Shown piece by piece: positions 20,586-38,900 of a DNA stretch of 64,000 bases (its first letter is position 1; each line of letters begins with the position of its first letter). The translations under genes and the position numbers were made by a program. The DNA is taken from assembly GCA_965215335.1 (NCBI GenBank), contig CBDCDA010000002.1:259682-323681 (forward strand), read 5' to 3'. The notes beneath the pieces are model-generated. The model worked only from the letters and a program-made list of their open reading frames with translations, did no database searches and was not told the DNA's origin. Source of the DNA: an uncultured Candidatus Entotheonella sp. (GTDB lineage: Bacteria; Tectomicrobia; Entotheonellia; Entotheonellales; Entotheonellaceae).

Positions 20586-23432
20586 CTATCCCGTACCTGC
20601 CTGCTCGGCTATTTTCTCGACCCGCACGGCGCAGAACTTGAACTCGGGAATTTTGCCGTGCGGGTCGAGGGCGTCGATGGTCAGCAGATTGGCGGCGGCT
20701 TCCTTGAAATGGAACGGCAGGAAGACACTGCCCGTTGACGGCTTGGTCGACGCCGTCACCCGGACCGTGATCTCGCCCCGCCGCGATACCACTCGCACCC
20801 GCTCACCATCCACGATGTCCAACGCCGTCATGTCCGCAGGCGTCATTTCCAGCAACGCTTCCGGCACCATGGCGTCCAGGGCCCTGGCGCGCCGCGTCAT
20901 GGTGCCCGTGTGCCAGTGCTGCAGCACCCGGCCGGTATTCAGCACCAGGGGATAAGCCGCGTCCGGCAGCTCCTTGGCGGGGGCGAACTCGGCGGGCGCA
21001 AACTTGCCCTTGCCGCGCGGAAAGACGTCGGTAAAGCGGATCGGCACGCCCGGATGCCGGGGTTCCGGGCACGGCCACGGAATGCCCTCCTCCGCCAGCC
21101 GCTCGTAGGTGATGCCGGTGAACACGGGCGTCAGGGACACGATCTCCCGCCAGATGGCCTCCTCCGAGGCGTACGACATCGGGTATCCCATGCGTGCGGC
21201 GAGGTCGACGATGATCCGCCAGTCGTCGCGCACCTGTCCCGGTGGCTCGATGGCCTGCCGGGCGAGTTGCACGCGCGAATCCGTGTTGGTAAAGGTGCCG
21301 GTTTTCTCGGGAAAGCTCGTTCCCGGCAGGACCACGTCGGCGTACGCCGCGGTTTCGGTGAGGAAGATGTCCTGCACCGCCAGGAAGTCCATGCTGGCCA
21401 AGCACTGCTTCACCTTGTTGATGTTGGGGTCGCTCAGGAAGGGGTTCTCGCCCATCATGAACATCGCCCGGATGTCACCCTCCAGCACCGCGGACATGAT
21501 TTCCACCACCGTAAGGCCCGGCTCGGGGGCGAGGCCGACGCCCCAGACGGCCTCGAATTTCCGCTGCACATCGGGGTCCGCGACGCTCTGATAGCCGGTG
21601 TAGACCATGGGAATGAGGCCGACGTCCGAGGCGCCTTGCACGTTGTTCTGGCCGCGCAATGGGTGCAGGCCGGTGCCGGGCCGGCCGATGTTGCCGGTGA
21701 GCAGTGCCAGGTTGATGAGGCAGCGGGCGTTGTCGGTGCCGGTGGTGTGCTGCGAGATGCCCATGCCCCAGAAGATCATGGCGCGCTCGGCCTGCCCGTA
21801 GGCCCGGGCGACGTCGATCAGCCGCTGTTCCGGCACCCCGGTGAGGCGTGACACCAGGCGCGGCGTGTAGGTGACCACCGTATCGCGCAGGCGGTCGAAA
21901 GCCTCGGTGCGCTCTTCGATGAACTCGGCGTCGTAAAGCGCTTCGCGGATGATGACGTGCATGAGGCCGTTGAGGAACGCCACGTCGGTGCCGGGGTTGA
22001 AGCGAACGTAATGGTCGGCGTGGTCGGCGATCTCGGGCCGCCGCGGGTCGGCGACGATCAGCGTGGCGCCGGCGTTGGCGGCCTGTTTGATGAACGTTGC
22101 TGCCACCGGGTGGTTGTGCGTGGTGTTGGAACCGATGATGAAAATGGCGTCGGTTTCCAGCGCGTCGGAAAATGGGTTCGACACCGAGCCGCCACCGATC
22201 TGGTCGAGCAGGGCGGCCACCGAAGAGGCATGGCACAGTCGCGTGCAGTGATCGACGTTGTTGGTGCCGAAGACGGCCCGGATGAGTTTCTGGAACAGGT
22301 AGTTGTCCTCGTTCGAGCACTTGGCGGAGCCGAAACCGGCCAGCGCCTGGCTGCCGTGCGCCTCGCGGATGGCCATGAAGCGCTGCGCCGCCAGGTCGAG
22401 GGCCTCGTCCCAGGTCGCTTCCCGGAACGCTTGGCGCGGCTCGGCGGGCGGCTCGGGGGACTTCGGGTAGTGCTCCGGCTTGCGAATCAGCGGCACCAAC
22501 AGGCGCTCGCCGTGGTGCACGTAATCGAAGCCGTAGCGGCCTTTGACGCACAGCCGGCCGTGGTTCACCGGGCTGGCGCGGCCGGACACCTGCACAATGG
22601 TGTTGGCCTCCGGGTTGATCGTGTAGGTGATGCTGCATCCGACGCCGCAGTAGGGGCACAGGGAGGCGACCCGTTTGTGGTCGGTGTCCGCCAGTAACGG
22701 CAGTGTCAGAGGCTTGTCGGTCAGGGCGCCGGTCGGGCAGGCGGCCATGCACTCGCCACAGGAAACGCAGCTCGACTGCCCCATTGGCAGGTCGTTGTCG
22801 AAGGAAATGCGCGCCGTGTAGCCCTTGCCGGCGCGCCCGATGACCTCGTTGCACTGCACGTCGTCGCAGGCGCGGATGCAGCGGTCGCACAGGATGCAGG
22901 CGTTGTGATCAACGGCGATGACCGACGATGACAGGTCGTGTCCGTTATCAAAGCTTGCCAGCGATTGGCGGGCGGGAAAGCGGGGCGTCGTGACGTCCAG
23001 CGCGGCGGCCAGTTCCAGCAGCAGGTCGGGCTTGCCGGCGCTGCGCGACGGCATGGGCTTGCCGTTGGCGGTGGGATAGTCGGCCATGAGCAGTTCGGTC
23101 AGCATGGCCCGCGACCGCGTTGTCTTTTCGTTGTTCGTGTGCACGACCATGCCGTCCTCGGCTTGACGCACGCAGGCGGCCGGCAGCACGCGACTGCCCT
23201 CCACTTCGACTACGCACATGCGGCAGACGCCAACCGGTTCCAGCTTGGGCGAGTGGCACAGCACCGGGATATCGATCCCTGCCCGTCGGGCGGCCTCGTA
23301 CAGGGTGGTGCCGGGCACCACGTCGAGCGTCCGACCGTCCATGGTGATGCGGACAGCACGCACCGCGTTCGTGCCGATGTGTCCTGTACTCTCGCTGGCG
23401 TTCGCTGCGACGTTTGCGCTGGCCTTGGACAT
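20586..23432 (-). CDS. fdsA: Formate dehydrogenase alpha subunit (NuoG-like N-terminal Fe-S domains plus molybdopterin domain), Cys-type
   Basis: 948 aa. 2Fe-2S (CHSPKLEPVGVCRMCVVE), 4Fe-4S ferredoxin repeats (CILCDRCIRAC, CVSCGECMAACP), and MopB (CPYCGVGCS...). No in-frame TGA. The true start may be an internal Met (MDGRTLDV). Confidence 0.8.
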   Translation of the reverse strand: MSKASANVAANASESTGHIGTNAVRAVRITMDGRTLDVVPGTTLYEAARRAGIDIPVLCHSPKLEPVGVCRMCVVEVEGSRVLPAACVRQAEDGMVVHTNNEKTTRSRAMLTELLMADYPTANGKPMPSRSAGKPDLLLELAAALDVTTPRFPARQSLASFDNGHDLSSSVIAVDHNACILCDRCIRACDDVQCNEVIGRAGKGYTARISFDNDLPMGQSSCVSCGECMAACPTGALTDKPLTLPLLADTDHKRVASLCPYCGVGCSITYTINPEANTIVQVSGRASPVNHGRLCVKGRYGFDYVHHGERLLVPLIRKPEHYPKSPEPPAEPRQAFREATWDEALDLAAQRFMAIREAHGSQALAGFGSAKCSNEDNYLFQKLIRAVFGTNNVDHCTRLCHASSVAALLDQIGGGSVSNPFSDALETDAIFIIGSNTTHNHPVAATFIKQAANAGATLIVADPRRPEIADHADHYVRFNPGTDVAFLNGLMHVIIREALYDAEFIEERTEAFDRLRDTVVTYTPRLVSRLTGVPEQRLIDVARAYGQAERAMIFWGMGISQHTTGTDNARCLINLALLTGNIGRPGTGLHPLRGQNNVQGASDVGLIPMVYTGYQSVADPDVQRKFEAVWGVGLAPEPGLTVVEIMSAVLEGDIRAMFMMGENPFLSDPNINKVKQCLASMDFLAVQDIFLTETAAYADVVLPGTSFPEKTGTFTNTDSRVQLARQAIEPPGQVRDDWRIIVDLAARMGYPMSYASEEAIWREIVSLTPVFTGITYERLAEEGIPWPCPEPRHPGVPIRFTDVFPRGKGKFAPAEFAPAKELPDAAYPLVLNTGRVLQHWHTGTMTRRARALDAMVPEALLEMTPADMTALDIVDGERVRVVSRRGEITVRVTASTKPSTGSVFLPFHFKEAAANLLTIDALDPHGKIPEFKFCAVRVEKIAEQAGTG

Positions 23433-23454
23433 GTGTGCTACCTCGCTCCACGGA

Positions 23455-25083
23455 TCACGCCGCCATGTAGCGGGTGATGTCGTCCCTGAAGTGCTTGATG
23501 ACCGACGAGATGGGGTTTGGCGCCGCCTGGCCCAGGCCGCAGATCGAGGTCAGCGCCATGGTTGCCGACAGTTCCTCGATGAGTTCCAGATCGGCCCACG
23601 AGCCGTTTCCCGCCAGAATATCCTCCAGAAGCAGGACGATCTTCTCGGCACCGACCCGGCAGGGCACGCACTTGCCGCACGATTCGTTACGAAAGAAGCG
23701 CCCGACGTTGAGGGCCAGTTCCAGCATGCAGACGTCGTCACCGATGATCACCACGGCACCCGATCCGAGCATCGAGCCGGCCGCCGCCAGGGTGCGGAAG
23801 TCCAGGGGGATATCGGCCATGCTGGCGGGCAGAAAGCCGGACGATGCGCCGCCGGGGGCAAAGGCTTTGAGGGCGCGGCCGTACCGCATGCCGCCGGCGC
23901 GTTCGATCAATTCGCGCACCGTCAGGCCGAGCGGCACCTCGTACACGCCGGGGTGCTTGACCTGACCGCTGACCGCCAGAAATTTCAGGCCCTTGGCGCC
24001 GTTCTCGCCGTGTTCGGCCCACCACTCGCCGCCGTTGAGCACGATGCCGGGTACCATGGCGAAGGTCTCGACGTTGTTCAGCAGCGTGGGGGCGCCAAAC
24101 AGCCCGTGCGTGCCCGGAAAGGGTGGCTTGTGGCGCGGCTCGGCCCGCTTGTCCTCCAGGACTTCGAGGAGTGCGGTTTCCTCGCCGCAGATGTAGCCGC
24201 CGGGACTCTCGAAAATCTCGAAGTCCACGTGGTACGGGGACCCCATCATGTATGGGCCGAGGATGCCCTCGTCCTGCCGTTGCCGCAGCGTCTTGAGCAG
24301 CACGTCTCGTTGCCGGGCGTATTCATGGCGGATGTAGATGATGGACTTGCGTGCGCCCACGGTCACCGCCGCCAGGGCCATGCCCTCCAGCACCAGATCA
24401 GGCAGCGTCTGCAAGATGACGCGGTCCTTGAACGTCCCCGGCTCGCTCTCGTCCGCGTTGCAGATGACGTACTTCACCTCACCCGGCGCCTGCCGCACCA
24501 ACTCCCACTTGACGCCGGTGGGAAATCCGGCGCCACCCATGCCGCGTAAGCCGCTCGCCTTGAGGGCTTCGAGCACCGCGGTGCTATCGCCGCCGTGGAC
24601 CAGACGACGCAACGCATCGTAAGTCGATACGCCGTCGTAGGGATCAGAGACGAACGTCGTATCGGGTGCGGAGAAACGCTGGCGCCGCAGGGTGCGCCCC
24701 CTGGCCAGCGACTCGAGAAGGGACATGATGCGCTGGGCGTTCGCCTCGGTGTAGACCTGGTCGTTCACGACGATGGCGGGCGCGCCGTCACATTGTCCCA
24801 GACACGCCGTGGTGCCCACCTGTGCGTCCGTCAGGGGCGAGGCATCCAGCGCGGTGCGGGCGATGGCCTGCAAATCCGTGGCGCCGCGCAACAGGCAAGC
24901 CATGTCGTGGCATACCCGGATGTCGACCTTGGGGGGCGGCTGTAAGCGAAAATGGGGGTAGAAGCTGGCCAGTCCGTGCAGGCGGTACAAGGGCACGTTG
25001 AGGCGGCGGGAAAGGGCCTGCAACGCTTCTGCAGGCAGGTACGAGTGGGTTTTCTGGATCAGGTTGAGTTCCTGAATAATCAT
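23455..25083 (-). CDS. fdsB: Formate dehydrogenase diaphorase subunit: fused NuoE-like (2Fe-2S) and NuoF-like (FMN/NAD, 4Fe-4S) domains
   Basis: ATG 25083 (MIIQELNLIQKTHSYLP). CHDMACLLRGA...CLGQCDGAP, then GGAGFPTGVKW and ESCGKCVPCRVG. Confidence 0.8.
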   Translation of the reverse strand: MIIQELNLIQKTHSYLPAEALQALSRRLNVPLYRLHGLASFYPHFRLQPPPKVDIRVCHDMACLLRGATDLQAIARTALDASPLTDAQVGTTACLGQCDGAPAIVVNDQVYTEANAQRIMSLLESLARGRTLRRQRFSAPDTTFVSDPYDGVSTYDALRRLVHGGDSTAVLEALKASGLRGMGGAGFPTGVKWELVRQAPGEVKYVICNADESEPGTFKDRVILQTLPDLVLEGMALAAVTVGARKSIIYIRHEYARQRDVLLKTLRQRQDEGILGPYMMGSPYHVDFEIFESPGGYICGEETALLEVLEDKRAEPRHKPPFPGTHGLFGAPTLLNNVETFAMVPGIVLNGGEWWAEHGENGAKGLKFLAVSGQVKHPGVYEVPLGLTVRELIERAGGMRYGRALKAFAPGGASSGFLPASMADIPLDFRTLAAAGSMLGSGAVVIIGDDVCMLELALNVGRFFRNESCGKCVPCRVGAEKIVLLLEDILAGNGSWADLELIEELSATMALTSICGLGQAAPNPISSVIKHFRDDITRYMAA

Positions 25084-25201
25084 CCGAGGGTTGCCCTGCA
25101 GCGTGTGACCGGGAGGGGAACGTATCGGGCGCAACCTTACCGTGCTTTGGGGCCATCGTCAACACTGCCGTGGGGCTGTAGGCGGGCGTGCCAGGCGCCG
25201 T

Positions 25202-25231
25202 TTGACAGTTTTTGAAGCGGCGTTTTACACT
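25202..25231 (+). promoter_or_regulatory. Candidate sigma70-type promoter for mobA
   Basis: TTGACA (25202-25207), 18-nt spacer, TACACT (25226-25231), about 75 nt upstream of ATG 25305. Pattern match only. Confidence 0.3.
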
Positions 25232-25304
25232 GCCCGCGCCCTCCGGCGCAGCCGGCATCCGAAAACCCCGCCGCGCCGTCCGGCGCGGCAAGGAGCGAGC
25301 CCCC

Positions 25305-25916
25305 ATGAAAGCTTCACCCGCTGGCGTCACGGGCGTCCTGCTTGCCGGCGGCAACAGCAGCCGCATGGGCCGCAACAAGGCCCTCATGTCGCTCGCCGGA
25401 CACCGCCTCGTCGACCGCGTCCTGGCTGTCCTGCGCGGCATCTTTGACGACCTGCTGATGGTCACCAACAGCCCCGACCTGTACGCCGACCTCGGCGTTC
25501 GCATGGTGCCCGACCTCGTCGCCGACAAGGGCGCCCTCGGCGGCATCCACAGCGCCATCCACCACGCCGCCACGCCGCATTGTCTCGTCGTGGCCTGCGA
25601 CATGCCGTTCCTGAACGCCGCCGTCTTGCGTTATCTGGCGGAGCAACGGGCGGGTTGCGACGTCGTCGTGCCCAGCTTGCACGGCAAGCCGCAGCCGCTG
25701 CACGCCGTCTACGGCAAAGCCTGCTTACAGCCCATCGCCCGGCGTCTGGGGACGGATCGCCTGCACGTCGTGGGTTTTTTCCCGGATGTACGGGTGCGGG
25801 AGGTAACGGCAAAGGAATTGGCGGGCTTTGACCCGGACGGTCTGTCGTTTCGCAACTTGAACACCCCGGAAGAATTCGCCGCCGCGGCGCGCCGGCTCGG
25901 TCCGGCGTTTAGCTGA
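25305..25916 (+). CDS. mobA: Molybdenum cofactor guanylyltransferase
   Basis: ATG 25305 after AAGGAG. GVLLAGGNSSRMGRNKAL, VVACDMPFL. Confidence 0.8.
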   Translation: MKASPAGVTGVLLAGGNSSRMGRNKALMSLAGHRLVDRVLAVLRGIFDDLLMVTNSPDLYADLGVRMVPDLVADKGALGGIHSAIHHAATPHCLVVACDMPFLNAAVLRYLAEQRAGCDVVVPSLHGKPQPLHAVYGKACLQPIARRLGTDRLHVVGFFPDVRVREVTAKELAGFDPDGLSFRNLNTPEEFAAAARRLGPAFS

Positions 25917-27999: not shown

Positions 28000-30213
28000 A
28001 TGAGACGTTACCGAGCCAACAACGCACAAGAGCAGGCGGCAACGCGCCGCTCCTTGGCTCTGGCGTTTCTTGTGAGTCTGTTGCTACTCGGTGTCGGCGC
28101 CGAAATGGTCCAGGCGGTGGAGGTGCCGCTGCCGACCAAGGAAGACATGGTTTACGGCGATTTCCCGGTCGTCGGGCGCCGCGTCGCGGTTTGGGTGATC
28201 GCGCAGTTGCACCTGATGTTCGGCGCCTTTGTGGTCGGCGTGCCGCTATTCATCTTGATCATTGAAATCTTGGGCGCCGCGACGAAGAACCAGCGGTACG
28301 ACGACCTGGCGCACGAGTTCACCCGCCTGCTCAGCGTCTCCTTTTCCACCACCGCCATCTTCGGCGGCATCCTGGTGTTCTTCCTGATTGGCCTCTACCC
28401 CACCTTCATGAATTTCCTGGCCAGTATCTTCTTCCCCTCCATGGTGGTCTACGTCTTCCTGTTCTTCGGCGAAAGCTTCAGCATGTACCTTTACTACTTC
28501 GGCTGGGACAGCCTGAAGGGCACGACACGCAGCGTCGGGGCGGTAATCGGCACGTCGGTCCTGAGCGTGCTGGTTCTGTATCCGGGGCTATTGCTGCTGC
28601 TGGCGCTTCCGTCCCTGTTCACGGGCGGCGGCTGGGCGGTGAGCTTCCCGGTGTCATACGGACTGGCCGGGGTGCTGTTCGTCGCACTGCTGGTGCATGG
28701 GTTGCGACCGGGCAAGAGCAGTTTTGTCCAGAGCCGCAAATGGATGCACATCTGCTTCGGTATCCTGCTGAACTACTTTGGCCTGATTCTTATGATGATT
28801 TCCAACTCGTGGGCGACGTTCATGACGTCGCCGTCGGGGATCAACCTGGACACCGGGGTGTTCCAGGGCACGACTTGGGACGCGATGCGCAACTTCACGT
28901 GGATGCCGGTCAACCTGCATCGGTTCATTGCCAACATCGCCTTTGGTGGTTCGGTGGTGGCGGCGTACGCGGCCTTTCGGTTTCTGTCGGCGGCCCGCAA
29001 TTCCCCCGAGCGGGCGCACTATGACTGGATGGGATACATCGGCAATTTCATCGCCCTGATCGGGCTGATCCCGCTACCCTTCGCGGGCTACTGGCTGGGC
29101 CGGGAAATCTATGGCTACGACCAGCAGCTCGGCATCACCATGATGGGCGGCATCTTTTCCTGGTTGTTCATCCTGCAGGCGGTGCTGATCGGCGCATTGT
29201 TCCTGGGCGCCAACTACTACCTGTGGCTGGGCATGGAACGCATCCCGGGTTCGGAACGTTACCGCAAGTTTACGCCCGTCATGCTCGGCGTGCTGACGGT
29301 GTGCTTCCTGGTATGGCTGACGCCGCACAGCCTCGTGGCCAGCCTGGAAGAGGCCCGCAAGATGGGCGGCGCGCACCACCCGATGCTCGGCGTCTTCGGA
29401 GTCATGTCGGCCAAGAACACCGTCGTCAATCTGATGATTCTCACTACGTTCCTGAGTTTCCTGCTGTATCGCCGCGGCAACAAGGGTGATCGGCTGCCCT
29501 TTGCCCGGCAAAGTGGCGCGTCGAAAGTCACGCTCATGGTCATCGCGGCCTTGGGGATCGTCCTCATGTGGCAGCTCAATGCGCCGCTGGCCGACCCGGC
29601 TCTGATGACCGGGCGTCTGGTGCTGTGGGCTTTCGAGGCCCTGACAGTGATTGCCGCGGTGGCCCTCACCCTGAGCGACCGCGGCACCTTGGGGCAGGCG
29701 CTGCTCTTTGCCATGTCGGCGGTAGTGGTGGTGTTCTACGGGGTTTACGGATACTACGTTGAAGCCATCGTGCGCATCGGCTTTTCCATCCTGCAGGTGT
29801 CCTCGGTGCTGCTGGTGCTGGTGGTGGGTACGACCATCGACATCGTGATCTTCCGCGGCGCGCCACTCGTCGGCGAAATCAATTGGGGCCGGATTCCCGA
29901 GCGGGCGCAATACGTCCTGTTCCTGCTCGCCACGTCCTTCACTTGGCTCATGGGCCTGATGGGCTACGCACGTTCGGGCTTGCGTACGCACTGGCATATT
30001 TTCAATGTGATGCGGGACTATTCGTCGGATGCCTTTACCCCGACGCTGGGTTATGCCTGCGGGGTGATCTCGATCATCGTGCTGGTGTTTCTGCTCTTGG
30101 TGAGTTTCATTTTCTGGCTGGCCCATATGGGCTCGGTGGGACACGCGCAGGAGGAAGCGGTGCTACACGGGGGCGCGTCCCCGGTTCTGCAACCCGGTGG
30201 CGGCGCAGACTAG
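28000..30213 (+). CDS. Cytochrome bd subunit-I-like (CydA-like, bd-like oxidase) polytopic membrane protein, 737 aa, no CydB partner
   Basis: ATG 28000 after GGAGATTTGAGG; the 97 upstream codons of the track ORF are discarded. First helix VIAQLHLMFGAFVVGVPLF resembles CydA helix 1 with its heme-ligand His. Further conserved-looking His are in WMHICFGILLN and PVNLHRFIANIAFGG. By eye there are more than 14 hydrophobic segments. Confidence 0.6.
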   Translation: MRRYRANNAQEQAATRRSLALAFLVSLLLLGVGAEMVQAVEVPLPTKEDMVYGDFPVVGRRVAVWVIAQLHLMFGAFVVGVPLFILIIEILGAATKNQRYDDLAHEFTRLLSVSFSTTAIFGGILVFFLIGLYPTFMNFLASIFFPSMVVYVFLFFGESFSMYLYYFGWDSLKGTTRSVGAVIGTSVLSVLVLYPGLLLLLALPSLFTGGGWAVSFPVSYGLAGVLFVALLVHGLRPGKSSFVQSRKWMHICFGILLNYFGLILMMISNSWATFMTSPSGINLDTGVFQGTTWDAMRNFTWMPVNLHRFIANIAFGGSVVAAYAAFRFLSAARNSPERAHYDWMGYIGNFIALIGLIPLPFAGYWLGREIYGYDQQLGITMMGGIFSWLFILQAVLIGALFLGANYYLWLGMERIPGSERYRKFTPVMLGVLTVCFLVWLTPHSLVASLEEARKMGGAHHPMLGVFGVMSAKNTVVNLMILTTFLSFLLYRRGNKGDRLPFARQSGASKVTLMVIAALGIVLMWQLNAPLADPALMTGRLVLWAFEALTVIAAVALTLSDRGTLGQALLFAMSAVVVVFYGVYGYYVEAIVRIGFSILQVSSVLLVLVVGTTIDIVIFRGAPLVGEINWGRIPERAQYVLFLLATSFTWLMGLMGYARSGLRTHWHIFNVMRDYSSDAFTPTLGYACGVISIIVLVFLLLVSFIFWLAHMGSVGHAQEEAVLHGGASPVLQPGGGAD

Positions 30214-30225
30214 GAAAGCGGCGAC

Positions 30226-31062
30226 ATGTTGACATTTCTGAAGGTTTTGGCGTTTAACGGCCTGGTCATCCTGTTCTTCTGGTACGTCGGTAACAGCATT
30301 CCGCAGCAGCGCAAAGACCCGCCCAAGGAGTCCGACCTGACGGCGGACATGACGCCCGAAGCATTCGTGGCGGCCGGGCAGGATATCTTCTACGGCAAGG
30401 GCACCTGCGCGCTGTGCCACACGATCGGCGAAAAGGGCGAGCGTTGCCCGAATCTGGCCGGTATCGGCGAGCTGGCCGACGTGCGGGTGCAGGAGGCCGG
30501 TTACCAGGGCGATGCGAGCAACGGCCCGGAGTACGTGGTGGAGTCGTTGCACAACCCGGCGGTGTACGTGGTTGACGGCTACCAGCCCACCATGCCGGCT
30601 CTGGGGCGCCAGTTGAACGATCTCGAAATGGTTGCTGTGGTTGCCTTCTTGCAGTCGCTCGGCGGTGACGTGACCGTAACGGGCGAGACGCGGTTTCCCA
30701 AGTATCGCGGGGAGGGCGATTCGGCGGTTGCGGCGGCGCCGGCCGCCGAGACGGCGCCGGCCGCGGTTGCGGCGGCGGGCGGCACGGGCCCGGAACTGGC
30801 GGCGCAATGGGGCTGCATCGCCTGTCACAGCTTGGACGCGCCGGTTCGCCTGGTGGGTCCCAGCCTGTGGGACATCGGGGTGCGTCAGGACGAGAATTTC
30901 ATTCGCGAATCCATCCTCGAGCCGGACGCCGTGATCGCGGAAGGCTTCCCGCCGGCGCTGATGAAATTGACGCTGGACGGCACGGGCTTTTACCAAAAGC
31001 TGGCGATACAGGACCTCAACACGCTGGTGGATTACCTGGCGTCGCTCAAGGGTGGCGAATAG
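30226..31062 (+). CDS. Membrane-anchored dihaem c-type cytochrome
   Basis: 278 aa. N-terminal TM helix, two CxxCH motifs (CALCH, CIACH) separated by an Ala/Pro-rich linker. Confidence 0.8.
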   Translation: MLTFLKVLAFNGLVILFFWYVGNSIPQQRKDPPKESDLTADMTPEAFVAAGQDIFYGKGTCALCHTIGEKGERCPNLAGIGELADVRVQEAGYQGDASNGPEYVVESLHNPAVYVVDGYQPTMPALGRQLNDLEMVAVVAFLQSLGGDVTVTGETRFPKYRGEGDSAVAAAPAAETAPAAVAAAGGTGPELAAQWGCIACHSLDAPVRLVGPSLWDIGVRQDENFIRESILEPDAVIAEGFPPALMKLTLDGTGFYQKLAIQDLNTLVDYLASLKGGE

Positions 31063-31100
31063 GCCCGGCCGCCGGGTTTCGGTGCGGAATTGGAGCAACC

Positions 31101-31880
31101 ATGAGACTGTCCATTCATCTTAAATCCCTGCTCACCCTGCTCGTGGCGATTTTTGTTTTCAGCGTCGTGGTGCCCTTCGTTTCCGCACCGATTCCCGGTC
31201 AGCTTTACGGCTGGTACGTGATCACGACGTTGTGCGTGATTTTCCTCTACGTCTCGTCCAGCGAGGTGTCGTGGGAAGAGTTCATCGTACCGGTTCGGCA
31301 TCTCCTGCTGGCCCGTACGGCCCTCATGAAGCCACTGCGCATCGTCGTGTTCATTGCCGTGCCGCTGTTGTGCGGCTGGTATTTTTCCACCTGGGCGGCG
31401 GGCGGCGCCACGCCGCCGGGCGGCCTGCGGGTCATTCACCCGACGCCTCCCTCATCGGTCAATTTCCAGGGCAAACGGCTGGTGCTGCAGGATATTTCGA
31501 TCAGCCCCATTCGCGAGGACGAGGCGCATCTCGCCGAGCACATCGAGAAGGGCCGCATTATCTATTACGAAAATTGCTTCTTCTGCCACGGTGACGCCCT
31601 GGATGGCAAGGGGCACTTCGCCAATGGGTTCAACCCGCCGCCGGCGGATTTTCAGGCCAGCGGGACGATTGCGCAGTTGTCGGAGTCCTACCTGTTCTGG
31701 CGTATTGCCAAGGGCGGGCCGGGATTGCCGGGTGAGTCGGCACCGTGGGATTCGGCCATGCCGGTTTGGGAGGACTTTCTCACGGAAGAGGAAATCTGGC
31801 AGGTCATTGCTTACTTGTATGACACCACGGGACACGAGCCGCGCGTCATGGACCACGGCGAAGGTGGTGGCGGACACTAG
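31101..31880 (+). CDS. Membrane-anchored (about 3 TM) monohaem c-type cytochrome with His/Gly-rich tail
   Basis: ATG 31101 after GGAGCAACC. CFFCH, then YLFWRIAKGGPG...MPVWEDFLTEEEIWQVIAYL (class I cytochrome c fold). Confidence 0.75.
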   Translation: MRLSIHLKSLLTLLVAIFVFSVVVPFVSAPIPGQLYGWYVITTLCVIFLYVSSSEVSWEEFIVPVRHLLLARTALMKPLRIVVFIAVPLLCGWYFSTWAAGGATPPGGLRVIHPTPPSSVNFQGKRLVLQDISISPIREDEAHLAEHIEKGRIIYYENCFFCHGDALDGKGHFANGFNPPPADFQASGTIAQLSESYLFWRIAKGGPGLPGESAPWDSAMPVWEDFLTEEEIWQVIAYLYDTTGHEPRVMDHGEGGGGH

Positions 31881-31895
31881 GTACGGGGAGCGACG

Positions 31896-33515
31896 GTGAG
31901 CGAGCAACGGAAAGCACGGGGTCGAAGCGTGAGGGCGCTGGCATGCTGCATGGGCGTGGGGCTATGGCTGTCGATAGCGCTGTTCGGCACCCCCCCTGTA
32001 AACGCCCAACCCACGGCAGCGGATCTCGAAGCCGGCGAGCAGCTATACCTCCAGTACTGTGCGCACTGCCACGGCGTGGAAGGCGACGGGGTAGGGGCTT
32101 CGACGGATGTCGTCTATCCCAAGCCGCGTGACTTCACCTCCGGCGTCTACAAGTTCCGTACCCGCCATGAAACCGAGGACGGTAATTGGTTGGCCGCCGA
32201 CTCTGACATCGCCCGCAGCATCCGCGAGGGCTTGCACGGCTCGTCCATGCCGGGCTGGGAAACGGTTCTGACCGGCCGGCAGATCGACCAGTTGGTGCAT
32301 TACATCAAGACGTTTGCCGAGGTGTTCGAGGAAGACACGCCGGGGCTGGAACTCAGTTTCGCCAACGAGATTCCGTGGTCGCCGGAAAGCATTGCCAAGG
32401 GCAAGGAGATTTTCGAAGCCGTCTTTGAATGCCACACCTGCCACGGAACGGACGGCCGCGGCAACGGCCAGCAGGCCCTCGACGGCCTGGAAGATGACTG
32501 GGGCTATCGCATCTGGCCGGCCAATCTGACCAAGCCCTGGACGTACCGTGGCGGCAGCGGGCGGCGTGACATCTTCCGTAACATCTCCTTGGGCATTGCG
32601 GGCACGCCCATGCCGCCTTTTGCCGACCCTGATCCGATGGCCGAGGCCCTCGAGACGGACGACCCGGAAGAGAAACAGGAGATCGAGGCGCTGGCGCGCG
32701 AGTTGCGAGAAAGCATCTGGCACACCGTGAATTACGTCCAATCGCTGTGGACCTATCCGCAGGAGCCCGAAGTCAGGGCGTCGCTGACGGCCAGGCGGGT
32801 CGACGGTGCGCTGCCCTCGAATCCCGATGACGCGGCGTGGCAGGCGGCGGCGATCAACTACTACCCGCTGGTCGGTCAGGTCGTCCAGGAGCCGCGGCTG
32901 TTTGCGCCCATGACCGTCGGCGTGGAAGTCCAGGCGCTGCACAACGGCGAGGAAGTTGCCTTCCGGCTGGTCTGGGACGACCGTACCGAGAGCGCGCCGG
33001 GCGAGAGCGACGAGACGGAGACCTACGTGGACGCCATCGCCCTGCAGTTCTCTTCCGAGCCGCTGTCCGGCATGGAGAAGCCGTACTTCCTCATGGGCGA
33101 CGCCTCCTATCCGACCGACCTGTGGTATTGGCGCAACGACCCTGGCGATGCGGTGCTGATTCAAACCCAGGGCGCCGGGACGTTCCAGGTTGGTGATACC
33201 ACCGGCGGGCTGGTCAGCCAGGGGCAGTTCGACAACGGGCAATACCGCGTAGTGATCAAGCGGGCTTTGCAGACGGAGCAAGCTGATACGGAAGTCCAGT
33301 TTCCGATCGGCGCCTTCATCCCGTTCAGCGTAACGGGATGGGACGGCTCGAACGGCGAGGCCGGCGGCTACCAGCGAACGGTGATGGCTTGGTACAACCT
33401 GTACCTGGAGCCGGAGCCTTCGAAGGCGCCAATCTATCTTTTGCTGGCCGGCATTGGCTTTGGATTGATCGTGGAATTCTCGGCGCTGTATGTGACACGG
33501 AAAAATCACGGCTGA
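31896..33515 (+). CDS. Dihaem cytochrome c fused to an EB_dh/DOMON-type haem-b domain, with C-terminal TM anchor (NxrC/EbdC-like)
   Basis: GTG start. Signal peptide, CAHCH and CHTCH, then VDAIALQFSSEPLSGMEKPYFLMGD...DLWYWRND and ...FSVTGWDGSNGE, ending in the hydrophobic helix IYLLLAGIGFGLIVEFSALYV. Confidence 0.65.
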   Translation: MSEQRKARGRSVRALACCMGVGLWLSIALFGTPPVNAQPTAADLEAGEQLYLQYCAHCHGVEGDGVGASTDVVYPKPRDFTSGVYKFRTRHETEDGNWLAADSDIARSIREGLHGSSMPGWETVLTGRQIDQLVHYIKTFAEVFEEDTPGLELSFANEIPWSPESIAKGKEIFEAVFECHTCHGTDGRGNGQQALDGLEDDWGYRIWPANLTKPWTYRGGSGRRDIFRNISLGIAGTPMPPFADPDPMAEALETDDPEEKQEIEALARELRESIWHTVNYVQSLWTYPQEPEVRASLTARRVDGALPSNPDDAAWQAAAINYYPLVGQVVQEPRLFAPMTVGVEVQALHNGEEVAFRLVWDDRTESAPGESDETETYVDAIALQFSSEPLSGMEKPYFLMGDASYPTDLWYWRNDPGDAVLIQTQGAGTFQVGDTTGGLVSQGQFDNGQYRVVIKRALQTEQADTEVQFPIGAFIPFSVTGWDGSNGEAGGYQRTVMAWYNLYLEPEPSKAPIYLLLAGIGFGLIVEFSALYVTRKNHG

Positions 33516-33541: not shown

Positions 33542-34312
33542 ATGCTTGAGCAGCTTATCGATCTTATGAACCGGCTGAACGTCAATATGTTGGGTTGGCT
33601 GCCGGAGGCCGCCTCGACGTACGCGCAGGCAATCGACGAGGTCTTCTACATTATCTATATCATCACCGGGCTGGCGTTCCTGCTGGTGACGGTGCTGATG
33701 TTCTGGTTTCTTCTCCAGTTCAAGGCCCGGCCCGGCCGCAGGGCGCGTTATTCGCACGGCAACGTGGCCCTGGAGTTGATATGGACCATCGTCCCGACCC
33801 TCGTGTTCCTGGGCATCTTCTTCTACAGCCAGTCCACGTGGTCCATCATCAAGTACCCCTCCGCGTTTCCCGAATTCGACGTACAAGTACGGGTCGTCGC
33901 CAAGCAGTTTGCCTGGGAGTTTCATTACCCCGGCCCGGACGGCGAATTCGACACCGGTGACGACAAGATGTTCGACGGTGACATGGTCGTGCCGGTGAAC
34001 CAGATCGTAGGGCTGACGCTGCGTGGTTCGGATGTGATTCACAGCTTTTTCGTGCCGGAGTTTCGCTTCAAGCAGGACATCTTGCCGCGCCGGGACATCC
34101 CGGCGTGGTTCAACGCCACCCGGACCGGACGCTTCGAAGCGCCCTGCGCCGAGTTGTGCGGTCCGGGGCATTCAGGCATGAAGGGATGGGTGAACGTCTA
34201 CGACGCTGCCGAGTATCAGGCTTGGGTTGCCGAGCAGTGGCCGGCGCTCGTGGATACCGGTGCGGAGGAAATGGACCAAGGGGACAGTGACCAGGCCGAT
34301 ACCGTGCAATAG
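33542..34312 (+). CDS. coxB: Cytochrome c oxidase subunit II (CuA)
   Basis: 256 aa, two N-terminal TM helices, CuA motif HSFFVPEF...CAELCGPGHSGM. Confidence 0.9.
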   Translation: MLEQLIDLMNRLNVNMLGWLPEAASTYAQAIDEVFYIIYIITGLAFLLVTVLMFWFLLQFKARPGRRARYSHGNVALELIWTIVPTLVFLGIFFYSQSTWSIIKYPSAFPEFDVQVRVVAKQFAWEFHYPGPDGEFDTGDDKMFDGDMVVPVNQIVGLTLRGSDVIHSFFVPEFRFKQDILPRRDIPAWFNATRTGRFEAPCAELCGPGHSGMKGWVNVYDAAEYQAWVAEQWPALVDTGAEEMDQGDSDQADTVQ

Positions 34313-34341
34313 CGTTTTCGCACTTGTTGAAGGGGAGAATC

Positions 34342-36123
34342 ATGAGTGAATCCAGCGTCGTTACGCACGCCGGGCATCACCGAGAGGGTTTTGTAAAGCA
34401 TTATCTGTTCTCGCTCGATCACAAGATGATCGGTCGTCAGTTTCTCTTCACCGGCCTGTTCATGCTGGTCATCGGCGGGCTGCTGGCCATGATGGTCCGC
34501 TGGCAGCTTGGTTATCCGGAAGAGCCGTTGCCCTTCATGGGCGGTTTCTCGGAGGACTTCTGGGATGGTGATTCGTGGTGGGCGCAGACCGCTCCCTTCG
34601 GGATCGTGACGTCCGAGTTCTACAACACGCTATTCACCATGCACGCCACCATCATGATCTTCTTCGTGGTCATGCCGATCATGGTCGGCGGCTTCGGCAA
34701 CTTCCTCATCCCTATCTGCATTGGCGCCAAGGACATGGCGTTCCCGACGCTGAACATGCTGTCGTACTGGACCTTCGTGCCCGGCGTCCTGCTGATGCTG
34801 CTGTCGTTCTTCGTGCCTGGCGGCGCGGCTGGTGGCGGCTGGACCAATTACGCCCCCCTGTCGGCGGTGCCGGATTACGCCGGCGTTGAGGGACACTGGG
34901 GCGTCACGCTATGGTGCATCAGCCTGTTCATCATCAGCTTCTCCTCCCTGATGGGCTCCATCAACTACATCACCACCATCATCAACATGCGGGCGCCGGG
35001 CATGACCCTGTTCCGCATGCCGCTGACCATCTGGTCCCTGTTCATCGTCGCCGTCCTGTTGCTGCTGGCCCTGCCGGTGCTGACCTCGGCGCTGGCCATG
35101 ATGGTCTTCGACCGCATGTTCGGCACGCACTTCTTCATCCCCGACGGCGGGGGCGAGCCGTTGCTGTGGCAGCACCTGTTCTGGTTCTTCGGCCATCCCG
35201 AGGTGTACGTCCTGGTGTTGCCCGCCATGGGCGTGACCTCCGACGTGCTGGCCGTGTTCGCCCGCAAGCCGATCTTCGGCTACCGCGCCATGGTCTACTC
35301 GATGTGCGCCATTGCCTTTCTGTCGTGGGTCGTCTGGGGCCATCACATGTTCCAGAGCGGCATGGACCCGGTTCTCGGCACGGCCTTCACGCTGACCACC
35401 ATGCTGATCGCGGTGCCGTCGGCGATCAAGACGTTCAACTGGCTCGGTACCCTGTGGGGCAGTTCGATCCGGTTTACCACGCCCATGTGGTTCGCCCTGG
35501 GATTCGTGTCGTTGTTCACCATCGGCGGGCTCAGCGGCATCTTCATGGCGTCGACGCCGGTGGACATTTTCATCCACGACACCTACTACATCGTGGCCCA
35601 CATCCATTACGTGGTGGCCGGGATCATTTTCGGCATCTTTGCCGGGTTGTACTTCTGGTTTCCGAAAATGTTCGGGCGCATGATGAGCGAGGCCCTGGGC
35701 AAGCTGCACTTCCTGCTGACCTTCGTGTTTTTCAACCTCACCTTCTTCCCCATGCACTTCCTCGGTGTGGGCGGCCACATGCGGCGCATTTACAACCCGG
35801 AGCAGTATGAATTTCTGCAGCCGTGGCAGGAGATGAACACGTTCATCACGATGATGGCGCTTTGCCTGGGCGCCTCGCAGATTTTCTTCGTCATCAACTT
35901 TATCGGCTCCCTGATGTGGGGCCGGCGTGCCGAAGCCAACCCCTGGGAGGCCAACACGCTGGAGTGGGATGCGCCCTCGCCGCCGCCACACGGAAATTTC
36001 TTCGAGGATCCGGTGGTGTACCGCGGCGCCTACGAATACAGTTCACCTGAGGTCGAAGAGGATTGGTTGCCGCAAAGCGTGCGTTTGGAGCCGGTGGCAG
36101 CCGAGCCGGAGGGTCGCCGTTAG
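34342..36123 (+). CDS. coxA: Cytochrome c oxidase subunit I, A1-type haem-copper oxidase
   Basis: ATG 34342 after GGGGAG. WFFGHPEVYVLVLP (CuB His, cross-linked Tyr, D-channel Glu), WGHHMF, HDTYYIVAHIHYV. Confidence 0.95.
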   Translation: MSESSVVTHAGHHREGFVKHYLFSLDHKMIGRQFLFTGLFMLVIGGLLAMMVRWQLGYPEEPLPFMGGFSEDFWDGDSWWAQTAPFGIVTSEFYNTLFTMHATIMIFFVVMPIMVGGFGNFLIPICIGAKDMAFPTLNMLSYWTFVPGVLLMLLSFFVPGGAAGGGWTNYAPLSAVPDYAGVEGHWGVTLWCISLFIISFSSLMGSINYITTIINMRAPGMTLFRMPLTIWSLFIVAVLLLLALPVLTSALAMMVFDRMFGTHFFIPDGGGEPLLWQHLFWFFGHPEVYVLVLPAMGVTSDVLAVFARKPIFGYRAMVYSMCAIAFLSWVVWGHHMFQSGMDPVLGTAFTLTTMLIAVPSAIKTFNWLGTLWGSSIRFTTPMWFALGFVSLFTIGGLSGIFMASTPVDIFIHDTYYIVAHIHYVVAGIIFGIFAGLYFWFPKMFGRMMSEALGKLHFLLTFVFFNLTFFPMHFLGVGGHMRRIYNPEQYEFLQPWQEMNTFITMMALCLGASQIFFVINFIGSLMWGRRAEANPWEANTLEWDAPSPPPHGNFFEDPVVYRGAYEYSSPEVEEDWLPQSVRLEPVAAEPEGRR

Positions 36124-37082
36124 TGTCTTTCGCGCCAACGCCCCTATGGGTGCATCGCTTGGCGGTGGCGCTGATGGTCGCCACGTTGCTGCTGATCGCT
36201 ATCGGTGCCTCCGTTACCAGCACCGGCTCCGGCTTGGCGGTGCCCGATTGGCCGCTGTCCTTCGGGCAGGTATTCCCGCCGATGGTCGGCGGCGTGCTGT
36301 ACGAGCACAGCCATCGCGTGGCGGCGGCCGTTGTCGGCATGCTGACCATCACGCTGATGGTCGTGATGACGCGCTGGGAATCGCGGGCGTGGCTGCGGTG
36401 GATGTCCCGCACTGCGGCGGTGGCGGTGGTGTTGCAGGGGCTGCTCGGCGGCATCACGGTGCTGTGGTTGTTGCCGACCGCGATATCGGTCAGCCACGCG
36501 TGCCTGGCGCAGGCGTTCCTCTGCCTTGCCGTCACGCTTGCGGTGTGCACGGGGCCGAGTTGGCAACAGCGGTGGGCCAGTCGCGAGGAAGTCGCGCAAC
36601 CGCGCCTCGTCGTACTGGCTGGTGTCACCACGGGGATGATCTACGTGCAGCTTGTTCTGGGCGCCCTCATGCGGCACACCGGCGCCGGTTTGGCGATTGC
36701 CGATTTTCCGCTCGCCTTCGGCCGCTTGCTGCCGCCTCTGGACTCCCCGGCGGTGCGTATCCATTTCCTGCATCGCGTCGGTGCCGTGGCGGTGACGCTG
36801 TGCGTCGTCTGGACCGTCACGCGGGTCATTCGCCAGCACGCCGAGGAGCGACAATTGCTGCGGCCCGCGCTGACGTTGAGCGGTTTGCTGCTGGCGCAGC
36901 TCACGCTGGGAGCGCTGACCATCTGGACGCGCCGGGCGGTTCTGCCGGTAACCGCGCACGTGGCGGTGGGCGCTGCGGTTCTGGCGATGAGTCTGTTCCT
37001 CACCCTGCGAAGTGTGCACTTGCTGACCTTTCGGGTTGGGGCTCACGAGCGGCATTTCTTGACTGAGCAGGTATCGGCATGA
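36123..37082 (+). CDS. ctaA: Haem A synthase (COX15/CtaA)
   Basis: Frame of track ORF 36063-37082. A plausible GTG at 36123 overlaps the coxA stop (TAGTG). VPDWPLSFG, EHSHRVAAAV, SHACLAQAF, HRVGAV, AHVAVGA (conserved His pairs). Start uncertain. Confidence 0.8.
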   Translation: MSFAPTPLWVHRLAVALMVATLLLIAIGASVTSTGSGLAVPDWPLSFGQVFPPMVGGVLYEHSHRVAAAVVGMLTITLMVVMTRWESRAWLRWMSRTAAVAVVLQGLLGGITVLWLLPTAISVSHACLAQAFLCLAVTLAVCTGPSWQQRWASREEVAQPRLVVLAGVTTGMIYVQLVLGALMRHTGAGLAIADFPLAFGRLLPPLDSPAVRIHFLHRVGAVAVTLCVVWTVTRVIRQHAEERQLLRPALTLSGLLLAQLTLGALTIWTRRAVLPVTAHVAVGAAVLAMSLFLTLRSVHLLTFRVGAHERHFLTEQVSA

Positions 37083-37990
37083 CAGGACTGCAACTGGCCA
37101 CACCGCGCGTTGAGGTTGCACCTCTCGTTCACAAGCTGCGCGACTATCTGGTGCTCGCCAAGCCGCGTGTCGTGGTCATGGTGCTGGCGGTGACCGCGAT
37201 GGGTTATTATCTGGGCGTGCTTGGCGCTCCGGACTGGATACGCCTGCTGCACCTCATGCTGGGCACGGCCTTGGCGACGGGCGGCACCCTGGCCCTGAAC
37301 GCCTATGTCGAGCGCACCGAGGACGCCATGATGAGTCGCACGGCGTTGCGGCCTTTGCCGGATGGCCGCCTGGAACCGGCCGCTGCTCTGCGCTTTGGCC
37401 TTGCCGCCGTCCTGGGCGGTTGCGCCTATCTGTTGATCAGGGTGCATCCCCTGTGCTCCGTTCTCATCGCGCTTACCACCTTGGTCTACCTGTTCGGCTA
37501 CACCCCGCTCAAGCGCAAGACTTCCCTCTGTACGCTCGTCGGGGCCATTCCCGGTGCCTTGCCACCCATGGTCGGATGGGCCGCGGCGCGTGGTACTCTG
37601 GGGGGCGAGGTCTGGATTTTGTTTGCCATCCTGTTTTTGTGGCAACTGCCCCATTCGCTAGCCATTGCTTGGCTGTACCGCGAGGACTACACGCGCGCCG
37701 GCTTCCGTCTCCTGCCGGTGATTCACCCGGACGGCCGCAGCACGGGACGCCACATCGTCATGAATAACCTGGCCCTGCTGGCTGTCGGCCTGCTGCCGAC
37801 CTTGGTCGGCCTTGCCGGCACTGCTTACTTTGTCGCCGCCTTTGTCCTCGGCCTGATTTTTCTGGGATTTGGTCTCGATCTGGCGCTCGCCCGCACCACC
37901 AACGCGGCGCGGCGCCTGTTGCTGGCCTCATTGGTGTATCTGCCGGTGATGTTCTTGTTCATGGCACTCGATAAAGTGCCGCAGTTTTAG
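37079..37990 (+). CDS. ctaB: Protohaem IX farnesyltransferase (haem O synthase)
   Basis: 303 aa, ATGA overlap with ctaA. ALNAYVERTEDAMMSRTALRPLP, YTPLKRKT, and WQLPHSLAIAW. Confidence 0.9.
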   Translation: MTGLQLATPRVEVAPLVHKLRDYLVLAKPRVVVMVLAVTAMGYYLGVLGAPDWIRLLHLMLGTALATGGTLALNAYVERTEDAMMSRTALRPLPDGRLEPAAALRFGLAAVLGGCAYLLIRVHPLCSVLIALTTLVYLFGYTPLKRKTSLCTLVGAIPGALPPMVGWAAARGTLGGEVWILFAILFLWQLPHSLAIAWLYREDYTRAGFRLLPVIHPDGRSTGRHIVMNNLALLAVGLLPTLVGLAGTAYFVAAFVLGLIFLGFGLDLALARTTNAARRLLLASLVYLPVMFLFMALDKVPQF

Positions 37991-38850: not shown

Positions 38851-38900
38851 GCGCAGGGGTGTCTGGGATCGCCTGCTTTTTCAGGATAAGGAGGTAGACG

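Follow-up and report, generated by a model that had tools for sequence, protein, structure and literature searches.

A four-gene OR-N2-type cytochrome bd-like module encoded directly upstream of an aa3 oxidase operon in Candidatus Entotheonella

A 64,000-nucleotide (nt) stretch from an uncultured Candidatus Entotheonella sp., a bacterium of sponge-symbiont type (assembly GCA_965215335.1, contig CBDCDA010000002.1, positions 259,682 to 323,681 of the forward strand; the window hereafter) carries a four-gene respiratory block on its plus strand at 28000-33515. The block encodes a cytochrome bd-like homologue of CydA and three c-type cytochromes, of which the first is dihaem, the second monohaem, and the third dihaem with a fused EB_dh domain, and it is followed directly by an operon for an aa3 cytochrome c oxidase. 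The four-gene module is real, far beyond chance. Judged by its signature residues, the first gene product is a member of the OR-N2 subfamily of the cytochrome bd superfamily. We put at roughly 0.5 the probability that the block is an OR-N2 O2 reductase fed by cytochrome c, whose membrane-tethered cytochromes also feed the neighbouring aa3 oxidase.

The first gene (28000..30213, plus strand) encodes the OR-N2-type cytochrome bd-like subunit of 737 amino acids (aa), a CydA homologue identified by PF01654, phmmer, hhalign, an AlphaFold2 (AF2) model, Foldseek, and residue conservation. It is followed on the same strand by a dihaem class I cytochrome c gene (30226..31062; CALCH61 and CIACH197; Pfam Cytochrom_C and phmmer to PDB 7zs0), a monohaem cytochrome c gene (31101..31880; CFFCH159) with three hydrophobic segments (Pfam Cytochrome_CBB3/Cytochrom_C and hydropathy), and the gene for a dihaem cytochrome c (31896..33515; CAHCH55 and CHTCH179) continued by an EB_dh domain (Pfam EB_dh) and a C-terminal transmembrane (TM) helix. 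The intergenic gaps inside the block are 12, 38, and 15 nt, and the three cytochrome genes hold five CxxCH motifs in total. A sequence-only reading of the window had described three c-type cytochromes 12-38 nt apart on one strand and a block that continues into coxB. Both descriptions hold; the gap to coxB is 26 nt, and a full aa3 operon lies behind it. No convincing terminator was found by scan in this 26-nt gap, and the module is very probably co-transcribed with the aa3 operon in Entotheonella. The closest relative is the Candidatus Entotheonella chromosome OZ244252.1, with 96% identity and identical gene order. The same reading had noted that no cydB or cydX follows the first gene. A tblastn search of the 64-kb window with Escherichia coli CydB and CydX agreed, the best E value being 0.49, i.e., no partner subunit, and the window holds no second cydA paralogue. 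An ordinary split bd oxidase was ruled out, since CydB, CydX, and a second CydA are missing from the 64 kb and from the syntenic loci.

The likeness of the first gene product to CydA is confined to its N-terminal part. Pfam Cyt_bd_oxida_I (PF01654) matched at 48.9 bits (cut-off 26.2), restricted to aa 62-178, and the sole PDB sequence match was to residues 4-130 of G. thermodenitrificans CydA (5doq_A; phmmer E 1.3e-7). A profile of 31 family representatives was aligned with E. coli CydA by hhalign at a probability of 94.8. In this alignment, H71 is equivalent to H19 of E. coli CydA (also to H21 of G. thermodenitrificans CydA), Y151 to E99, E158 to E107, H250 to H126, and H307 to H186. The CydA-type histidine previously picked out in the motif AQLHLMFG is H71. 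It had been placed in the first helix, which is correct for the CydA core and not for the whole protein, where the H71 helix is the second predicted one; the AF2 model has an extra helix ahead of it at aa 14-36. Past TM5 (E. coli residue ~211), hhalign found no alignment, and the corresponding loop is only ~28 aa long. Because the alignment to CydA ends after TM5, the bd-like protein is taken to have no Q-loop; published descriptions of this family likewise report none. The full CydA ligand set for three haems is not present: H71, H307, and M469 are kept, E99 is replaced by Y151, and E445 by S659.

The AF2 model (predicted local distance difference test score, pLDDT, 81.5; predicted template modelling score, pTM, 0.83) contains 18 long helices, 14 of the core and four inserted. 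The inserted helices lie in two segments, aa ~176-244 (nt 28525-28731) and aa ~499-555 (nt 29494-29664), each with two predicted TM helices. Both insertions are restricted to Tectomicrobia-type proteins and are missing from most relatives, and they account for the length of 737 aa against ~620 aa in most relatives; the first was modelled with low confidence (pLDDT 47-59). In a Foldseek search with this model, the significant matches were exclusively CydA chains (E 2e-6 to 3e-4; TM-score on target 0.44-0.57). Matches to CydB chains, which bear on the idea that the C-terminal half is a fused CydB, were weak (probability 0.4-0.7, E > 1).

Residue conservation was counted over 92 bd-like sequences from all genomic contexts. 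H250 and H307 are conserved in all 92 sequences; Y151, E158, M469, W665, and H666 in 91; H71, H460, and N473 in 90; and S659 in 86. H443 is variable (His in 58/92, Arg in 32/92). H460 and H666 have no CydA counterpart and are located in periplasmic loops by predicted topology. The NIDE0901-type bd-like protein of Nitrospira was reportedly proposed by Luecker and co-workers in 2010 to hold a putative Cu site, and H460 and H666 are candidates for such a site or for a further haem.

The bd superfamily was divided into qOR, OR-C, and OR-N by Murali, Gennis and Hemp (2021; bioRxiv 10.1101/2021.01.16.426971), whose Supplementary Table 6 gives H99, Y183, E190, H213, H269, M430/N434, S563, and W569 as the OR-N2 reference residues. 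In the Entotheonella protein, H71, Y151, E158, H250, H307, M469/N473, S659, and W665 have exactly the OR-N2 spacings once both insertions are removed; the first five were mapped by hhalign, and M469/N473, S659, and W665 by spacing onto the Murali reference. The position of E158 is Glu in OR-N2 and in the Entotheonella protein, and Gly in OR-N1. The 14 AF2 helices common to the family agree with the 14 TM helices of OR-N2, and genes 2-4 supply the OR-N2 operon composition of several cytochromes c and an EbdC homologue. Identity to the homologues of Nitrospirota and Nitrospinota is 40-46%. The kinship with Nitrospira-type bd-like proteins lacking a Q-loop and carrying extra helices, as suggested in the sequence-only reading, is borne out by the presence of all eight OR-N2 signature residues. 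That such proteins are biochemically undefined is consistent with the papers to 2025-2026, in which no OR-N member has been purified or assayed, and with a PDB copy running to April 2026, in which Foldseek found no OR-N structure.

The operon type has several precedents. One including an EbdC-like subunit was already catalogued in the supplementary text of Murali et al. (2021), and OR-N was already recorded for Tectomicrobia in their phylum table (10.1101/2021.01.16.426971); the finding is hence not new in kind. In the aerobic Mn oxidiser Ca. Manganitrophus, the TO_1 complex comprises a bd-like protein and two cytochromes c together with a cytochrome b in the periplasm; its expression is in the 98th percentile (Yu and Leadbetter). 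In Nitrospira moscoviensis, bd-like_2 and bd-like_3 are encoded with two membrane cytochromes c and alt_NxrC; alt_NxrC_2, beside bd-like_3, has a TM helix, two haem c motifs, and a mass of ~62 kDa (Mundinger, 2019). Kuenenia stuttgartiensis encodes the cydA-like kustd1712, the dihaem kustd1711, the monohaem kustd1710, and the dihaem kustd1709, and the conserved cluster is common to Nitrospina and Kuenenia (PMC3578206). The Entotheonella block shares with these systems the 14-TM CydA-homologue core without a quinol site, identical signature residues, and four genes in identical order, with gene 2 a homologue of Kustd1711. The earlier proposal that the four genes form one cytochrome-c-linked redox module joined to the aa3 operon is supported by this match to the OR-N2, TO_1, and bd-like-alt_NxrC descriptions and by the recurrence of an A-type oxidase beside the block in several phyla. 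Unlike those systems, the block belongs to a Tectomicrobia heterotroph and has no nitrite oxidoreductase (NXR) nearby; its bd-like protein carries four inserted TM helices, its EB_dh domain has Gln in place of a Lys ligand, a possibly cupredoxin-like fifth gene is missing, and it is joined directly to the aa3 operon, away from the PCP_red genes.

By its match to crystallised Kustd1711 (PDB 7zs0; phmmer E 9e-28), gene 2 is a direct homologue of this Kuenenia protein, which has two His/Met haems with a midpoint potential of approximately +350 mV (PMC11791136). The N-terminal hydrophobic helix of gene 2 may be either an anchor or a signal peptide. In gene 3, the hydrophobic segments are N-terminal, at about aa 8-30, 36-53, and 73-96. 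The distal Met is kept in all five c-haem domains of genes 2-4. A catalytic membrane subunit fed by anchored mono- and dihaem cytochromes c would recall the cbb3 oxidase (CcoNOP), and gene 4 matches CcoP-type haem domains. The catalytic subunits are unrelated, however, with a haem-copper oxidase fold in cbb3 and a CydA fold here.

Gene 4 matched Pfam EB_dh (PF09459) at 69.1 bits (cut-off 33.3), so that, like the PF01654 match of gene 1, the assignment stands above its cut-off. TIGR03477 was hit with an E value of 1.6e-30 and 106 bits, under its cut-off of 169.85. The PDB sequence matches of gene 4 were 6h5l_B (E 1e-38), NxrC (7b04_C; 6e-12), and EbdC (2ivf_C; 1.5e-9). A C-terminal TM anchor is located at aa 510-534, and the helix at the N-terminus resembles a signal that would be cleaved (..PVNA/QP). 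The EbdC haem ligands Met108 and Lys201 align with M400 and Q493; Met is kept and Lys is replaced by Gln. Over 56 orthologues, the two ligand columns contain M (17), F (14), and R (11), and R (18), K (14), I (7), and Q (4), respectively. The M/K pair occurs in Rokubacteria, in two Tectomicrobia, and in one Nitrospirota locus. The window and L004 have M/Q, and L001 and L002 have M/M. One proteobacterial paralogue has the alternative pair H397 and M494, and the F/R pair of Rhodothermales and Acidobacteriota offers no evident ligand. The EB_dh domain as a sure haem b site was rejected, as the ligand columns are not conserved. Five CxxCH motifs and one putative haem b had been counted in the sequence-only reading; the five motifs stand, and the haem b is in doubt, since Gln (Q493) takes the place of the canonical Lys ligand in the window. 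Haem b in this domain is possible, and the canonical ligand test does not support it.

The gene 4 protein resembles the gamma subunits EbdC and NxrC in belonging to the EB_dh fold family above the Pfam gathering score and in keeping the Met ligand position. It differs from them in carrying a fused dihaem cytochrome c together with a TM anchor, in having Gln for Lys, in scoring under the NCBIfam cut-off, and in having no alpha or beta partner in the window; no genes for a molybdenum-bis(pyranopterin guanine dinucleotide) (Mo-bisPGD) alpha or an FeS beta subunit stand beside the block. These features bear on a proposal that we regard as very improbable for this organism, namely that the block serves as the membrane anchor or electron outlet for a periplasmic molybdoenzyme docking on the EB_dh domain, possibly with reverse electron transport to quinone. 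Such a role was earlier proposed for Nitrospira, Nitrospina, and anammox bacteria, the domain is homologous to NxrC and EbdC, and periplasmic Mo/FeS proteins adjoin the block elsewhere (Aio-like in 9 loci and ActB-like in 13 loci). The sole Mo enzyme of the window, however, is an NAD-type formate dehydrogenase on the opposite strand beside a NuoEF-like protein, the Lys ligand is gone here, and both ligands are gone in some clades. Moreover, a proton path from the cytoplasmic side would have the wrong polarity for quinone reduction driven by the proton-motive force (pmf), and it is not evident why a heterotroph would need reverse electron transport.

The module extends far beyond Entotheonella. 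An exhaustive search of cluster representatives returned 1053 clusters at E ≤ 1e-3, of which 203 remained at the stricter E ≤ 1e-30, and a motif scan of species-representative genomes, built on 13 closer sequences, gave at least 596 carriers. The best 80 of these at least 596 carriers span approximately 15 phylum-level groups, including Tectomicrobia, Rokubacteria/Methylomirabilota, Gemmatimonadota, Acidobacteriota, Rhodothermales, Poribacteria, Nitrospinota, Nitrospirota, Planctomycetota, Chloroflexota, Myxococcota, Latescibacterota, and proteobacterial metagenome-assembled genomes (MAGs). For 83 related loci (labelled L001 etc.), all-vs-all clustering of open reading frames (ORFs) was performed and the recurrent clusters were annotated. 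The four genes were found in the same order in 71 of the 83 loci; among the other 12, 11 end at a contig edge and one has no detectable gene 2. Gene 3 was detected in 66 loci. The prospect, raised with the sequence-only reading, that the four genes might not be conserved together was thus not realised. Two taxonomic labels in the survey look wrong. L007 (CAVZBC010000104.1) is labelled Gammaproteobacteria, yet it is 83% identical to and fully syntenic with Entotheonella; L043 (DASRAN010000028.1) is labelled Patescibacteria, yet its locus is of the Acidobacteriota type, with ActA- and ActB-like genes plus the block.

The operon behind the block is predicted to encode a complete A-type aa3 cytochrome c oxidase, with a subunit II without haem c. 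On the plus strand, it comprises coxB (33542-34312; CuA motif, no CxxCH; Pfam COX2_TM/COX2), coxA (34324-36123; Pfam COX1, 512 bits), ctaA (36063-37082; synteny with L001, COX15-CtaA), ctaB (37079-37990; synteny with L001, UbiA), a COX3-family gene of 234 aa (38146-38850; Pfam), a 91-aa ORF without family match (38901-39176), a COX3 gene of 203 aa (39173-39784; Pfam), a COX4_pro-like gene (39807-40130; synteny with L001, where COX4_pro is annotated), and a DUF420 gene (40069-40602). Pfam and tblastn, along with synteny, contributed to the annotation from ctaA onwards. The arrangement of two COX3-family genes flanking the 91-aa ORF (38146-39784) is kept in Entotheonella, Rokubacteria, and other loci.

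Among the 83 loci, 34 have an A-type oxidase within 10 kb of the block: 24 downstream on the same strand, 8 upstream, and 2 otherwise. The downstream arrangement is found in Tectomicrobia, 11/13 Rokubacteria/Methylomirabilota, and 6/7 Gemmatimonadota. The upstream loci are mainly Rhodothermales, and four of them (L039, L047, L054, and L072) also carry genes of alternative complex III (ACIII); the order in L054 and L047 is actC-D-E-F, SCO1, coxB, coxA, cox3, and then the block. Wherever CoxB lies directly downstream of the block, the window included, it has an intact CuA motif and no CxxCH, without exception. One CxxCH is present in CoxB of four ACIII-linked Rhodothermales oxidases and of the distal oxidase in L082. 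Two further contexts recur. In 13 loci, 12 of them from Acidobacteriota, genes for a QrcA/ActA-like multihaem cytochrome c, an ActB-like protein (1018 aa, with a variant twin-arginine translocation signal), and a monohaem cytochrome c are directly upstream of the block (L065 5309-9770, L043, L044, L051, L058, L059, L063, L064, L068, L070, L077, L079, and L081). No NrfD-like ActC or ActF was found within 10 kb of the block in these 13 loci, which leaves the bd-like protein as the sole polytopic membrane subunit; the arrangement looks like an ACIII-type periplasmic arm on a CydA-type membrane subunit. In nine loci, eight from proteobacterial MAGs and one from Planctomycetota, an AioA-like Mo enzyme (Rieske_3 and Molybdopterin) is encoded upstream of the block (L014 1203-9978, L012, L019, L025, L027, L030, L035, L042, and L078). 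Also encoded in these loci are two CCP/MauG dihaem peroxidases, a Rieske protein, and a HEAT-repeat protein of 750 aa, and the block itself often occurs there as two diverged copies in tandem. The adjacency of NXR and the block in nitrite oxidisers and anammox bacteria is known from the literature.

These contexts lend support to the main alternative, which we consider unlikely. The block would be a quinol:cytochrome c oxidoreductase, a third 'complex III' architecture built on a CydA scaffold. Quinol would be oxidised at a new site near the haem of H307 and M469, the c-haems would pass electrons to CuA of the aa3 oxidase, and the whole operon would form a quinol-to-O2 chain like that of ACIII-caa3 or bcc-aa3 operons. 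The block does resemble those operons in placing a membrane-tethered multihaem c module directly upstream of an A-type oxidase operon, with c-haems plausibly wired to CuA. It differs in having no NrfD-like, Rieske, or cytochrome b subunit, in its CydA-homologous membrane subunit, and in a quinol site that is only hypothetical. The 24 loci in which the block precedes a cox operon with a haem-c-less CoxB, and the 13 ActA/ActB-like loci with monohaem cytochrome c and no ActC or ActF, are consistent with this alternative. The same can be said of the presence of the block in anaerobic anammox bacteria and of a downhill order of potentials from quinol through the b haems to c haems of ~+350 mV, and an ACIII-like role was earlier suggested for Nitrospina (PMC3578206) and for bd-like_3 of Nitrospira. 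Several observations argue the other way. The CydA Q-loop and all known quinol-binding residues are missing, and there is no alignment past TM5. E158, H250, and the H19-equivalent ligand are invariant, and periplasmic quinol oxidation would need none of them; release of protons to the cytoplasm would waste energy. The Rhodothermales have a complete ACIII (ActC, D, E, and F) and a caa3 oxidase beside the block, which would make a second such complex redundant, and in Nitrospirales without an additional oxygen reductase the OR-N protein must reduce O2. In the window itself, tblastn with ActA, B, C, D, and F queries gave no match, and no statement on bc1 or ACIII in Entotheonella was found in the literature. 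If the alternative were true, the block would feed the haem-c-less aa3 oxidase of the same operon in Tectomicrobia, Rokubacteria/Methylomirabilota, and Gemmatimonadota, would stand in for the NrfD-type ACIII subunits in Acidobacteriota, and would account for the anammox occurrence and the proposed role at NXR.

In the preferred reading, the block is a cytochrome-c-fed O2 reductase. The entry point for electrons would be the periplasmic side, where three cytochromes would supply up to five His/Met c-haems of high potential. The 3-TM monohaem protein and the EB_dh fusion would be tethered to the membrane, and the first dihaem protein either anchored or released by signal cleavage. Electrons would then reach a b558-like haem held by H307 and M469 and, from there, the haem held by H71, the probable site of O2 reduction. 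Protons for this reaction would be drawn from the cytoplasm through the retained CydA channel residues E158 and H250, with Y151 in place of CydA Glu99, and the invariant H460 and H666 may bind a further cofactor, Cu or haem. CuA of the aa3 oxidase would likewise receive electrons from the tethered cytochromes; CoxB of this oxidase carries no haem c itself. The result would be a branched terminal segment, bd-like protein plus proton-pumping aa3, from a single locus.

What we observe is membership of the family together with the conserved positions of the ligands, the topology, the gene order, and the linkage; we infer haem occupancy, O2 as the substrate, the direction of electron flow, and the sharing of cytochromes with aa3. 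O2 reduction is favoured because the bd-superfamily core, the H19-equivalent ligand, and the proton-channel residues are invariant, and because the OR-N type is the sole oxygen reductase encoded by some cultivated aerobic Nitrospirales. The very high expression of TO_1 in an aerobic Mn oxidiser and the high potential of the c-haems point the same way. Should E158 and H250 carry protons from the cytoplasm, as their CydA counterparts do, the haem chemistry would consume protons and make pmf. By analogy with CydA, this would suit O2 reduction and would fit neither the oxidation of quinol on the periplasmic side nor a quinone reduction driven by pmf. In three phyla the block tightly adjoins an aa3 operon without haem c, which suggests that CuA, too, receives electrons from the tethered cytochromes.

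Compared with canonical cytochrome bd (CydABX; qOR1-3), the protein keeps an N-terminal four-helix core with the equivalents of H19, E107, H126, and H186, a CydA-like fold, and, by analogy, probable O2 reduction with cytoplasmic protons. It differs in lacking the Q-loop, CydB, and CydX, in having Tyr for E99 and Ser for E445, and in ~9 additional helices, and it cannot be aligned past TM5; its proposed electron donor is cytochrome c, whereas that of cytochrome bd is quinol.

Several points weigh against O2 reduction by this module. Two terminal oxidases within one operon are unusual, and the slot upstream of a haem-c-less aa3 operon is normally taken by a complex III-type donor. O2 reduction is an assumption, since no OR-N member has ever been purified or assayed, and the di-haem active site of cytochrome bd is not intact because E445 is replaced by S659 and E99 by Tyr. 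The block sits in the nxr cluster of Kuenenia, a strict anaerobe. In the 13 mainly Acidobacteriota loci, it follows ActA/ActB-like genes without an NrfD-like quinol subunit, which is difficult to reconcile with a bd-like protein that lacks a quinone site.

The altered active site and the anammox occurrence could also be read to mean that another substrate is reduced. The block would then be a cytochrome c-fed reductase of NO, nitrite, or peroxide, or would serve chiefly in detoxification, and its adjacency to aa3 would reflect co-regulation only; we judge this improbable. The active-site residues do differ from those of cytochrome bd (E99 to Tyr, E445 to Ser), the block is found within nxr clusters of anammox bacteria and nitrite oxidisers, and two dihaem peroxidase (CCP/MauG) genes are present in the Aio-linked loci. 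Canonical cytochrome bd has itself been implicated in NO and peroxide tolerance in the literature. Most of the surveyed carriers, however, come from ordinary lineages of aerobic or facultative heterotrophs whose loci hold no nitrogen-oxide genes, the residues of the catalytic core are the same in every context, and the window shows no sign of NO or nitrite metabolism.

A set of accessory genes travels with the block. In the window, these are genes on the plus strand for a protein with Usp, PCP_red, and rubredoxin-like domains (42803-44656; cluster common to 26 related loci), an Mrp/NUBPL P-loop NTPase (44669-45673; 18 related loci), and a protein with Zn-ribbon and PCP_red domains (45670-46164; 12 related loci), all identified by Pfam. 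The set stands directly behind the block in L065 (14437-21243). In the window it lies at 42803-46164, after the cox operon, so that the cox operon separates the block from its usual accessory genes. A radical SAM/SPASM plus PCP_red protein occurs in 22 loci; its nearest NCBIfam families are the AhbD haem b synthase and NirJ2, below cut-off (TIGR04545, E 5e-88, below cut-off), and its gene is missing from the window. The accessory genes may form a cofactor-maturation set. No paper linking PCP_red-domain genes to bd-like oxidases was found in the literature. In 42 loci there is a fifth gene (~250 aa), which mostly lies between the EB_dh gene and coxB (examples are L033 ~15085-15700 and L083 384-1130, minus strand); the window lacks it. 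Its product has an H..C-x2-H-x2-M motif and a CarboxypepD_reg-like C-terminus. The motif alone suggests a possible blue-copper protein; in searches of Pfam and the PDB, just the C-terminal domain found support.

Between the cox operon and the accessory genes, small membrane proteins are encoded on the plus strand after DUF420 (40662-41978): a 113-aa ORF, DUF983, and a CopD-like protein below the Pfam cut-off. They may be oxidase or copper assembly factors. A predicted soluble monohaem cytochrome c with a signal peptide and CLKCH motif follows (42148-42762, plus strand; from its translation, with no Pfam match at E ≤ 1e-4) and is a candidate carrier for both oxidases. A promoter-like site precedes its gene at 42003-42032; it comes from a scan near chance, with 5 promoter-like sites against 3.8 expected, and terminator-like sites were fewer than expected. 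Upstream of the block, 20586-25916 holds genes for an NAD-type formate-dehydrogenase-like Mo enzyme (948 aa, minus strand), a NuoE/NuoF-like fusion (559 aa, minus strand), and MobA (plus strand), with no evident connection to the block. Two islands on the minus strand have a low GC content (0.51-0.55 against ~0.63). The one at 17678-20529 encodes an SfiI-like restriction enzyme and a DNA methylase, and that at 49978-53057 a second N6/N4 methylase and an ISAZ013-type DDE transposase.

What is new here is in every case incremental: the Entotheonella member with its four inserted helices, the loss of the Lys ligand, the direct joining to aa3, the recurrent lack of haem c in the downstream CoxB, the contexts with ActAB-like and Aio-like genes, and the accessory set of PCP_red and radical SAM genes. 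In Nitrospira, Nitrospina, and Mn-oxidising Nitrospirota, OR-N proteins are presumed to act as terminal oxidases, and they also occur in the anammox nxr cluster. The four-gene module is widespread and independent of nitrite oxidation. Three of its pairings are informative, with a haem-c-less aa3 oxidase, with ActAB-like proteins lacking a quinol subunit, and with an arsenite-oxidase-like enzyme. The activities to be expected from the three differ, and together they make the question 'oxidase or complex III?' testable. The possible source organisms now extend beyond slow-growing nitrifiers, although nearly all recovered carriers are uncultivated MAGs. For Entotheonella itself, the result is modest: the locus would provide an additional branch ending its aerobic respiratory chain. 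For the family, the new elements are useful for assigning the function of OR-N2.

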